From Puniceicoccus vermicola (GTDB taxonomy: Bacteria > Verrucomicrobiota > Verrucomicrobiia > Opitutales > Puniceicoccaceae), in the NCBI RefSeq assembly GCF_014230055.1, contig NZ_JACHVA010000046.1:91963-155962 (forward strand): a DNA stretch of 64,000 bases. The letters are read 5' to 3'. Positions 24,683-26,617 of the stretch are shown here, piece after piece. Position 1 is the first letter of the stretch, and the number at the start of each line of letters is the position of its first letter. A program made the translations under genes and the position numbers. The notes beneath the pieces are model-generated. The model saw nothing but the letters and a program-made list of their open reading frames with translations, was not told the DNA's origin and searched no databases.

Positions 24683-24768
24683 TTAGGACTGGCTCATCAC
24701 GCTTCGCCGAAAAATCCTCGAAAGATTTGGCAAACATACGATTTGTAGTCCTAAGTGAGGCTATAATC
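24680..24768. promoter_or_regulatory. Divergent intergenic region with an 11-bp inverted repeat (operator-like) and a TATAAT -10-like box
   Basis: CACTTAGGACT (24680-24690) and AGTCCTAAGTG (24747-24757) are perfect inverted repeats. TATAAT at 24763-24768 is ~45 bp upstream of the 24810 start. It sits between the Ubl/E2 operon (minus) and the regulator genes (plus). Confidence 0.4.
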
Positions 24769-24809
24769 ATTTTTGACACTCGCTAACCTCTTATCTACAC
24801 CTCGAATAA

Positions 24810-25433
24810 ATGAATGTAGGAAAACCGCCCGACTTCGATAAGCTCTTCGCACATAGAGGAGGTTTCGCGATGGCATATGCAAAGCTCACTGCGTACGCGA
24901 TCACAGTAATTAATAAGCGAAAAGGGCCGTCTAAGAACGGTCGTATTATTGAAAAGCTGGATGCGCAGGAATTGGTCAAGCATGCCTTATCTCGACTGGT
25001 TGAATGCGAAGACATAAACGATGGAGAAGCGGTCTACTGTTTGTTGCGTCGTCATATTGATAACTACGTCAGAACAATTCAGAAACAGAAGACTAATCCT
25101 ACCCTGGTTCAGATTGCGACATCTGGATACGAAGAAGGGTCTGCGCGAATTTCAGAGCCAAAGGTTGAAAATACGAAGAATCCAGCAGAGACAAGTGAAC
25201 AGAAAGACGAAAACGAATTCTACAAGGAGCTCCTCGCCCAAACTAAACTTAAATTCAAATCTGAGGGCGTAGAATTCGCGCTACTCGAATTAGTGATCGA
25301 AGGCTGGAGTGATAGAAGTGAGTTGGCAGCTCTGCTTGAAATCACTCCTCAACAGTATGACGTAATTCTCAAGAGAGTCAGTCGGGCAGCTATTTCTCTA
25401 AAAGATCAATTGTTAAGAAATGTAAAAAAATGA
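24810..25433 (+). CDS. Sigma-70 region-4-like HTH regulatory protein (possible ECF-type sigma factor or transcriptional regulator)
   Basis: The C-terminus FALLELVIEGWSDRSELAALLEITPQQYDVILKRVSRAAISLKD fits the sigma-70 region 4 pattern. Divergent from the Ubl/E2 operon. Its stop overlaps the next ORF (25430). Confidence 0.4.
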   Translation: MNVGKPPDFDKLFAHRGGFAMAYAKLTAYAITVINKRKGPSKNGRIIEKLDAQELVKHALSRLVECEDINDGEAVYCLLRRHIDNYVRTIQKQKTNPTLVQIATSGYEEGSARISEPKVENTKNPAETSEQKDENEFYKELLAQTKLKFKSEGVEFALLELVIEGWSDRSELAALLEITPQQYDVILKRVSRAAISLKDQLLRNVKK

Positions 25434-25825
25434 AATCAAACCACAAACATATGAAGGCCGGGCACTTTCTCATTGATCATGCACAGCCAACAGAAGACGA
25501 AATTGATGCAATGAACCCAGCTGAACTCGCTGACTTTCTCAGTGAAAATGGAGTAGACTTGGCAAAGATGGATTCTGAGATTCCTCAAATACAACAAGAC
25601 CTAACGAGCCAAATAATTTTCTCGCAGGCAGACCACGTGCTCAGAAATAAAACACAAAGCACTATCGTCGATTTGTCCGAATTCAGCGAGGAACAGATTA
25701 TCGCAGAGCTTACCCAGAAATACGGGGGAACTGAAAACATACCACTAGCTGCACGTAATTTCAAATCGCTGAGTCGAGAGGAATGGGAGAGCTTATATAA
25801 AGACCTAATTCTTCGGGGGAAGTGA
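25430..25825 (+). CDS. Hypothetical protein (131 aa), possible partner of the upstream HTH protein
   Basis: ATGA overlap with the upstream ORF; acidic; no recognisable motif. Confidence 0.35.
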   Translation: MKSNHKHMKAGHFLIDHAQPTEDEIDAMNPAELADFLSENGVDLAKMDSEIPQIQQDLTSQIIFSQADHVLRNKTQSTIVDLSEFSEEQIIAELTQKYGGTENIPLAARNFKSLSREEWESLYKDLILRGK

Positions 25826-25840
25826 AACGTTCATCATTAT

Positions 25841-26617
25841 ATGCGTGATCCAAATTACATAGGTGCTGAAGCTTGTTCTTTCGGACTTTTGCAACGATTT
25901 ACAATCGATGATCCTACATTCCCCATCGAGAATCTAGCCTATGCACTCGGAGTCGACATCGAATATGGCGGCATTACCAATGCTGATGCGTGGCTGCTCA
26001 AGTGTGATAATGGCAGAGGTGTGATACGATTAAATAAAACAATCACGTCGCCGTCTCGCCAGAGGTTTTCAATAGCGCACGAGTTAGGCCATTGGGTTAT
26101 GCATACAAATGTGACTCAAGGCTATCTTTGCACCGCAAAAGACCTGCAAGACTATGGACGATCTCCAGAAGAGGCTGAAGCAAATTGGTTTGCAGCAACG
26201 TTACTGATGCCAAAGTCACTGATACCTTCTAATTTCCACAAACGTGACCCGAGTTTTGAATACATAATGGAGCTAGCTTCACACTTCCAGACGAGTTTCA
26301 CTTCCACTGCGAGACGCTTTGTCGAATTAAGTAGGCAGCCAGTAGTTCTGATCTCCTCATCGAGCGGAGTCATCAATTGGAGTGCTCGGAGTCAAAATGC
26401 TAAATACTATTTTCTACCAAATGGTAGTTCTGTCCCAAGACACTCACTGACCGAAGAGGTTACAACAAAAGGGCGAACGAAAGGTGCACCAGAAAGCGTA
26501 GAGCCGGAAATATGGTTCCCCGAACGCACTTTCTCTGAAGATGAAGAACTATTCGAAGAGGTGAAATGTTTAGTAAATTACGACATTTCACTAACTCTTC
26601 TCTGGTTTCCTCAATAA
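25841..26617 (+). CDS. ImmA/IrrE-family (COG2856) zinc metallopeptidase
   Basis: HEXXH motif in SIAHELGHWVMH followed by EEAEANWFAATLLMP, the typical ImmA/IrrE/CapP-like signature. Confidence 0.75.
   Translation: MRDPNYIGAEACSFGLLQRFTIDDPTFPIENLAYALGVDIEYGGITNADAWLLKCDNGRGVIRLNKTITSPSRQRFSIAHELGHWVMHTNVTQGYLCTAKDLQDYGRSPEEAEANWFAATLLMPKSLIPSNFHKRDPSFEYIMELASHFQTSFTSTARRFVELSRQPVVLISSSSGVINWSARSQNAKYYFLPNGSSVPRHSLTEEVTTKGRTKGAPESVEPEIWFPERTFSEDEELFEEVKCLVNYDISLTLLWFPQ

Follow-up and report, generated by a model that had tools for sequence, protein, structure and literature searches.

The 64,000-nucleotide stretch of Puniceicoccus vermicola DNA analysed here (contig NZ_JACHVA010000046.1, positions 91,963 to 155,962; hereafter the window) carries a compact three-gene cassette on its plus strand, divergent from a minus-strand operon for ubiquitin-like (Ubl) protein conjugation, which under the nomenclature and definitions of PMC11601596 is classed as a Type I Bub operon. 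This cassette, called here the trio, and its possible role in switching on the Bub operon are the subject of this work. A preliminary description, made from the DNA letters, had reported three packed plus-strand genes with an ATGA overlap between the first two, transcribed away from the Ubl operon, and its coordinates are confirmed: all three open reading frames (ORFs) stand, genes 1 and 2 share the start/stop overlap at 25430-25433, and a gap of 15 nt lies between genes 2 and 3. The first two products, of 207 and 131 amino acids (aa), are 100% identical to P. vermicola entries annotated as hypothetical at NCBI. The G+C content is 0.43-0.47 at 24-27 kb as against about 0.50-0.56 in the surroundings.

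Gene 3 encodes a zinc metallopeptidase, and the ImmA/IrrE/CapP-like signature noted earlier is fully borne out. The protein matches Peptidase_M78 (1.8e-19), the PADLOC capP model (2.7e-56, positions 13-241 of 242) and Thauera CapP (PDB 7t5t, 1.9e-19 across residues 40-258, C-terminal domain included), and its protease signature comprises HELGH at residues 80-84, Cys97 and EAEANWFAATLLMP. The residues H80-E81-xx-H84, Cys97, D101/D104, E111 and R73, the last lying seven residues ahead of the first His of HELGH, are kept in 17 loci; Cys97 aligns to the Thauera CapP cysteine, and the cysteine-switch loop and acidic residues are present. Homology identifies the gene 3 product as a bona fide CapP that has a C-terminal sensor domain as well as the cysteine-switch loop, a feature widespread among CapP proteins though not universal. 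In characterized CapP single-stranded DNA (ssDNA) activates this cysteine switch, the partner CapH is cut at F82|R83, with Arg at P1', and the CapH C-terminal helix that follows the cleavage site docks on CapP (10.64898/2026.05.16.725639). By homology to E. coli and Thauera CapP, the gene 3 product would likewise be activated by ssDNA opening the switch loop.

The 207-aa product of gene 1 had been described as a helix-turn-helix (HTH) protein resembling region 4 of sigma-70, and a profile assignment to a sigma, XRE or LuxR family had been suggested as a check. That assignment was run and did not settle the matter: queried both with the protein alone and with profiles of 17 and 29 members, Pfam, NCBIfam and PDB sequences returned no sigma match, the best sequence or profile match being to a ZitR/MarR HTH (0.005). 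The family is rare: a search of 1.84 billion representatives yielded 31 clusters at E <= 1e-3, whose members are all about 200-210 aa long. The sigma reading comes from the fold together with weak profile signals. An AlphaFold2 (AF2) model (mean confidence, pLDDT, 76.6) contains two helical domains, 9-91 and 125-206, joined by a disordered acidic linker (94-124), and among the top 50 structures retrieved by Foldseek, 49 belong to sigma factors or their domains, most of them as full-length chains whose alignments span about 190-200 columns, with probabilities up to 0.97 yet weak E-values (0.017-1.7). Residues ~9-91 are modelled as a sigma2-like domain and residues 125-206 as a sigma4-like HTH domain, so that a DNA-binding fold is found in the model; apart from these two domains and the linker the model appears to hold nothing else, and region 1.1 and region 3 domains are not seen in it. 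When the 29-member family was compared by hhalign with E. coli RpoE (query sequence identical to 1or7_A), a single colinear alignment ran through regions 2.1-2.4, the linker and regions 4.1-4.2 (probability 42%, pairwise E 2.6e-4). Distant relatives carry a canonical DLVQEA motif and give sub-threshold matches to Sigma70_r2, Sigma70_r4 and GerE. The region-4-like HTH is indeed there, but it appears to be part of a whole sigma2-linker-sigma4 arrangement like that of sigma factors of the extracytoplasmic function (ECF, group 4) class. Model and profile comparison both point to gene 1 as encoding a strongly diverged ECF-type sigma factor, an outlier with respect to classical ECF sigmas, which would be expected to bind RNA polymerase. 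A regular-expression search of the 64-kb window found no canonical ECF sigma.

The small protein encoded by gene 2 has no Pfam, NCBIfam or PADLOC match at E <= 1, HTH models included, and no recognizable anti-sigma domain fold. Its AF2 model, built from a 6-sequence alignment, is all-helical (pLDDT 62) except for residues 99-115, which are non-helical. In an alignment of 17 orthologues (A5) only L37, A67 and R109 are invariant. The last of these lies in the motif P-[LI]-A-A-R-[NG]-F-[KR] (P-L-A-A-R109-N-F-K in the window), which the model places within the non-helical stretch and ahead of a C-terminal amphipathic helix (W119, L122, Y123, L126, I127). By eye, this C-terminal pattern resembles the C-termini of seven canonical CapH proteins collected from plasmids as controls. 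These controls match the PADLOC capH model at 1e-13 to 1e-31 and, in addition, 11 to 21 other models each, mostly of HTH type, whereas none of the 17 members of the small-protein family, nor the version from Cereibacter sphaeroides described below, matches a generic HTH model in PADLOC. The capH model itself recognizes the C. sphaeroides orthologue (4.9e-5) and four orthologues linked to CBASS (anti-phage signalling systems based on cyclic oligonucleotides) or Bil operons (0.018-0.058), and leaves the window protein unmatched; by hhalign, A5 matches the C. sphaeroides protein (probability 78%) and does not match canonical CapH (0.3-0.9%, negative in both runs). The gene 2 product thus sits in the capH position and may descend from CapH, but it fails the HTH test that defines that family. 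IrrE cuts DdrO of Deinococcus before an arginine (L106|R107), and the Arg at P1' there and in the F82|R83 site of CapH matches the invariant Arg109; in CapH of E. coli this F|R site lies within a C-terminal pair of dimerization helices. The preliminary description had proposed the HTH partner as a repressor cleaved by the protease. This now seems less likely: because the 131-aa protein occupies the capH position and presents an invariant arginine in an exposed loop ahead of an amphipathic helix, it is a likelier CapP substrate than the 207-aa protein.

Within the 127-bp spacer between the two operons, positions 24679-24690 and 24747-24758 form a perfect inverted repeat of 12 nt, TCACTTAGGACT / AGTCCTAAGTGA. 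Each arm supplies the downstream half of a bipartite motif, TTTTTCGGCGGAA-N12/13-GTCCTAAGTGA, that is kept in both orientations across 15 intergenic regions whose sigma-like proteins are about 26-79% identical to that of the window. Alignment of the 15 spacers gives the fuller form TTTTT-CGGCGGAA, 12-13 non-conserved bases, (C)A-GTCCTAAG-TGA. The copies always point outward, one toward the defence operon and one toward the sigma operon. Of the 30 half-sites, 25 carry a perfect GTCCTAAG and none departs from it by more than one mismatch; a GGCGGAA-like box lies 12-13 nt upstream, while the spacers between boxes and the central region are not conserved. Within the 64-kb window the 11-mer GTCCTAAGTGA occurs at these two sites only (Table 1). 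The boxes lie about 21 bp apart, centre to centre, and have GGAA and GTC cores. ECF promoters carry GGAA and GTC cores, and the autoregulation common to ECF factors predicts a copy before the sigma operon itself. A simple sigma-70 scan of the 127-bp spacer found no housekeeping-type promoter. We infer that the motif, which is new in this analysis, is the cognate bipartite promoter of the sigma-like protein on both operons. The first defence gene starts 5-8 nt past the motif in 7 loci (8 nt in the window, which is one of them) and 13-16 nt past it in 5 more; if GTCCTAAG is a -10 element, the defence mRNAs would therefore be leaderless or nearly so. The inverted repeat was also considered as an RNA hairpin or a dimeric operator. 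As a primary reading this was rejected, because the arms are kept by sequence and not by compensatory change, lie 56-66 nt apart and each have their own upstream box at fixed spacing. No RNA family was found by Rfam at 21-29 kb. Two further sites fitting a loose form of the bipartite pattern, at 15947 and 53215, are not taken as regulon members, about three chance matches being expected per 64 kb.

Table 1. Genes and promoter-like elements of the trio and the adjoining Bub operon (positions in the window)
Feature	Position	Strand	Description
-10-like GTCCTAAGTGA	24748-24758	+	Faces sigma operon; right arm of 12-nt inverted repeat
-35-like TGGCAAA (consensus CGGCGGAA)	24728-24734	+	13 nt upstream of GTCCTAAG; faces sigma operon
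-10-like GTCCTAAGTGA	24679-24689	-	Faces bubAB; left arm of repeat; bubAB ATG 24673 8 nt downstream
-35-like CGGCGAA	24703-24709	-	Preceded by T5 tract; 13 nt upstream of GTCCTAAG; faces bubAB
Gene 1	24810-25433	+	207 aa; putative divergent ECF-like sigma factor
Gene 2	25430-25825	+	131 aa; small helical protein in capH position; proposed anti-sigma and CapP substrate
Gene 3	25841-26617	+	258 aa; CapP, ImmA/IrrE-type Zn metallopeptidase
bubAB (Ubl-E2 fusion)	23555-24682	-	Multi_ubiq 5.5e-26, Prok-E2_E 3.2e-35; first gene of Bub operon
bubCD (JAB peptidase-E1 fusion)	22158-23666	-	ThiF 6e-24, Prok-JAB 6.8e-7
bubE (DUF6527)	21805-22161	-	PF20137 7.4e-24

The trio is conserved as a unit and is no chance assembly. 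Every related locus fetched (L001-L024, L030/L033) contains it in the same order, and downstream of every gene 1 homologue with a readable neighbourhood come orthologues of gene 2 and CapP, usually overlapping or abutting, which suggests translational coupling. A search for related loci with alignment A1 reached only metagenome-assembled genomes of Opitutales and eight metagenome contigs. In the closer subfamily, from Opitutales genomes and metagenomes, the trio stands beside a Type I Bub operon in the window, L002/L009 and L010, beside a Type II operon in L001/L007 and probably in L011 (a weak BubE match only), and beside a split Bub variant in L003, L004/L005, L006, L008, L014, L018 and L021. 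The split variant consists of a separate Multi_ubiq protein (~235 aa), a 134-135-aa protein and a BubCD-like JAB-E1 protein (2e-27 to Citrobacter BubCD). Its 134-135-aa protein has no Pfam match, and the L008 copy, the only one searched, has no PDB match; no adjoining DUF6527 gene was called, and the variant cannot be placed in the published Type I/II scheme. The more distant members accompany a Bil operon (L019), CBASS (L020, L022, L024) or genes without assignment (L023). The earlier expectation that the cassette is linked to the Ubl operon is borne out by its recurrence beside loci of the E1/JAB type, but the association is not specific to Bub, as the distant versions beside CBASS and Bil operons show. 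A small DUF2188 gene recurs in or beside CapP-regulated operons: at 3934-4140 of L004, just past the E1 gene; at 2502-2720 of L023, first downstream of the motif; and at 431-664 of L032, between capH and the multiubiquitin gene. L032 and L025 carry canonical pairs of HTH-type CapH and CapP beside Bub operons, in agreement with the published figure of 168 CapH+CapP-associated operons among 544 Bub operons (PMC11601596).

A homologous trio lies on plasmid pDE of C. sphaeroides 2.4.1 (L033, 6977-8762), beside a CBASS with a SAVED effector. It consists of a 191-aa sigma-like protein and a 119-aa protein, both hypothetical in RefSeq, and an ImmA/IrrE protein. Searches of plasmids by tblastn with the sigma-like proteins returned nothing, and this homologue surfaced only through a CapP search. 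The 191-aa protein aligns to the gene 1 family (A4) with 95% probability by hhalign and receives a Pfam Sigma70_r2 match (8.5e-4), whereas the window protein is too diverged for Pfam. In the 119-aa protein, the region matched to A5 includes the AARN motif.

This architecture has been recorded before. Twenty-four CBASS systems, C. sphaeroides 2.4.1 among them, are tabulated as 'Sigma-70 present' in Table S1 of Lau et al. (2022; doi 10.1101/2022.04.27.489752), where the sigma-containing subset receives one sentence and a table column; because the gene identifiers in that table are consecutive, the 'capH' listed for C. sphaeroides is the 119-aa protein. The trio belongs to this sigma-containing subset of the CapP regulator family. 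The preliminary description had called it an unusual variant of the protease/repressor switch. In its middle protein, without a detectable HTH, and in its probable logic it departs from the CapH/CapP systems characterized so far, but the architecture as such had already been tabulated. Our literature search found no paper that analyses the sigma-containing architecture with respect to its mechanism, its promoter motif or its link to Bub or Bil operons. Canonical CapH+CapP systems share with the trio an orthologous CapP and a presumed substrate gene directly upstream of capP on the same strand, the pair being divergent from the defence operon; in the sigma subset the order sigma, 'capH', capP, divergent from that operon, is shared as well. 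They differ in that canonical CapH is an XRE-type HTH repressor, whereas the middle protein here shows neither a detectable HTH nor profile similarity to it.

We propose that the trio responds to DNA damage as a CapP-family switch, acting on the divergent Bub operon through release of a sigma factor and not through loss of a repressor, a proposal in which we place about even confidence. Basal co-expression of the three genes would yield an inactive complex of the sigma-like protein with the small protein, which would serve as its anti-sigma factor, together with latent CapP. ssDNA arising from DNA damage or phage replication would activate CapP, which would then cut the small protein; the predicted site, Ala108|Arg109, immediately precedes the C-terminal helix. 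Once free, the sigma-like protein would take RNA polymerase to both promoters (~CGGCGGAA-N13-GTCCTAAGTGA), so that the Bub operon would be induced, probably from leaderless or very short-leader mRNA, and the cassette would amplify its own expression. Activation by a released sigma factor is favoured over derepression because the -35/-10-like motif faces both operons and the spacer contains no promoter of the sigma-70 type. A precedent in immunity is CalpL/CalpT/CalpS, in which a signal-activated protease cleaves an anti-sigma factor and frees an ECF-like sigma. In a broader and more tentative form, to which we give a little less than even credence, a subset of the regulators filed as 'CapH+CapP' would be cytoplasmic sigma/anti-sigma/protease switches with a CapH-derived, HTH-less anti-sigma factor and the promoter CGGCGGAA-N13-GTCCTAAG, driving Bub, Bil and CBASS operons under autoregulation.

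Several observations weigh against this proposal. The sigma assignment combines a fold with weak profile signals, the window protein having no Pfam match and weak Foldseek E-values. The start of bubAB lies only 5-16 nt past the motif in most loci, so that translation would have to be leaderless or nearly so, a mode not verified for Verrucomicrobiota. The gap between the GGAA and GTC cores is 12-13 nt, where ECF promoters usually have 16-17 nt, although the centre-to-centre distance of ~21 bp is compatible. Finally, L013 contains an orphan trio (7001-8806) with no Ubl, CBASS or Bil operon and without the GGCGGAA/GTCCTAAG motif. The flanks of the L013 trio hold a response regulator and a glycosyltransferase upstream and a secretin operon downstream.

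Among the alternatives, the main one is dual control, in which gene 1 would still encode a dedicated sigma factor, needed by the promoter, and gene 2 would encode a highly diverged CapH repressor that uses a SAP-like motif or a degenerate HTH to bind the central palindrome TTCCGCCGAAAAA...TTTTTCGGCGGAA and is cleaved by CapP. We consider this unlikely. No Pfam HTH is found in the small proteins of the window, of C. sphaeroides or of other members, the trio proteins match no generic PADLOC HTH model, unlike every canonical CapH, and the family alignment with canonical CapH is negative, as described above. The PADLOC capH model, for its part, may have been trained on the table of Lau et al. (2022), which has these proteins in it, and the palindrome is an automatic consequence of two back-to-back promoters.

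The 207-aa protein could itself be the DNA-binding repressor, its region-4-like HTH and region 2 reading the two boxes, so that cleavage by CapP would derepress the Bub operon and the small ORF would be accessory. It is the sole protein of the trio with a confident DNA-binding fold, its disordered linker of ~30 residues would be within reach of a protease, and the left box overlaps the ribosome-binding region of bubAB, where a bound protein could block expression. We nevertheless regard this reading as improbable: the protein is colinear with whole ECF sigma factors, sigma2 domain and linker included, the 127-bp spacer shows no sign of another promoter, and the -35/-10 geometry points outward on both sides. 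It would also leave a strictly conserved small protein with an invariant arginine unexplained, and in the characterized relatives (CapH, DdrO, ImmR) the substrate gene adjoins the protease gene. Very improbable, too, is the reading of the trio as a stress or addiction module complete in itself, merely co-transferred in defence islands and not regulating the Bub operon, for although L013 carries it without a Ubl operon and it accompanies systems as unrelated as CBASS, Bil and Bub in the manner of a mobile module, the bipartite motif stands immediately upstream of the first defence gene in 15 loci, the orientation is always divergent across a short spacer, and for CapH+CapP placed likewise, control of the adjoining operon has been demonstrated by experiment (Lau et al., 2022).

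The proposed sigma-release switch can be compared with several characterized systems. The CalpL-CalpT-CalpS system of type III CRISPR has the same three-part antiviral logic of protease, anti-sigma factor and ECF-like sigma; it employs a Lon-SAVED protease instead of an M78 CapP, responds to cA4 (cyclic tetra-adenylate) instead of ssDNA and has an unrelated anti-sigma factor, so that the likeness is mechanistic only. IrrE/DdrO in Deinococcus and ImmA/ImmR in ICEBs1 and prophages share an M78 metallopeptidase that cleaves an adjacent regulator after DNA damage, but their substrates are HTH repressors, the promoters derepressed are of the sigma-70 type and no sigma factor takes part. The sigmaE-RseA and SigW-RsiW pairs resemble the trio in having a two-domain sigma factor co-transcribed with a downstream partner, their own bipartite promoter and proteolysis of that partner; here, however, the partner is cytoplasmic and without a recognizable anti-sigma domain, and the protease is a soluble ssDNA sensor and not a membrane-bound site-1/site-2 cascade. 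CapW/BrxR and CapK+CapS, which also regulate Bub operons, occupy the same niche, directly upstream of and divergent from Bub, CBASS or Bil operons, with the same presumed ssDNA or DNA-damage input; they consist of unrelated proteins (a WYL repressor in one case, a kinase and a STAS-winged HTH repressor in the other) and act by relieving repression.

The neighbouring operon is, by sequence comparison, an intact Type I Bub operon in which BubAB, BubCD and BubE are all present. BubAB matches a multi-ubiquitin domain (PDB 9d59, 1e-63) and Citrobacter BubB (9eav, 2e-32), and BubCD matches Citrobacter BubCD (9ea4, 2.1e-154, residues 39-499 covered). The JAB Asp of BubCD is kept (Citrobacter D104), and the Tyr in a conserved GYI(T/K)GV is probably the counterpart of the catalytic Tyr, its numbering being unconfirmed. 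The ORF starts listed for bubCD and bubAB are probably too long: as homology to Citrobacter BubCD begins at residue 39, the true bubCD start is probably Met37 (~23558), and for bubAB the ATG at 24673 is more likely than the GTG at 24682, since the latter falls within the conserved promoter motif.

The surroundings of the two operons show further features. A 187-nt direct repeat occurs in four copies (17799-17985, 20369-20555, 21587-21773 and 28770-28956). Those at 20369 and 28770, with 95% identity to each other, enclose 8.2 kb in which the trio, the Bub operon and three further genes are found; a copy of 64% identity follows directly downstream of bubE. Such repeats may represent an intergenic element in dispersed copies, or else mark the ends of an inserted island. 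On the plus strand, 1.3 kb from the trio, ORFs of 56 aa (27716-27886) and 195 aa (27883-28470) appear to overlap by four bases (27883-27886), and the N-terminus of the 195-aa protein matches PADLOC PD-T4-9_A (1.7e-8). The two may be a further pair of defence or toxin-antitoxin-like genes, in which case the region would amount to a small defence island. Other intergenic stretches, 39-97 nt long, are duplicated at 85-94% identity (27418-27658 and 30802-30929; 28577-28670 and 30984-31077; 16369-16465 and 17595-17691), and short dispersed repeats are unusually abundant in the region. Farther away, on the minus strand at 40382-41177, ARAGORN calls nine closely packed tRNA genes (two Leu-AAG, two Arg-ACG, Gln, Met, Leu-CAG, Phe and Asn), with an overlap between two of the first calls.

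The biochemistry of Bub operons has been solved, while their biological role is unknown, and knowledge of the inducer would give a handle for inducing them. In the present case the trigger is probably DNA damage, which CapP would sense and a private sigma factor would pass on. The model reassigns the 'capH' of sigma-containing systems as a probable anti-sigma factor, supplies a promoter motif and a predicted cleavage site, and has in C. sphaeroides 2.4.1, with its pDE plasmid, a genetically tractable host. If it is correct, no anti-sigma factor before the small protein would have been known as a substrate of an ImmA/IrrE-family protease, and the trio would be a second independent case, after CalpL/CalpT/CalpS, of immune signalling by liberation of a sigma factor. 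Induction would be all-or-none and self-amplifying, qualitatively unlike that of the repressor-based CapW, CapH and CapS switches, and immune operons on mobile islands would bring along their own sigma factor and promoter code, insulated from the transcription of the host.

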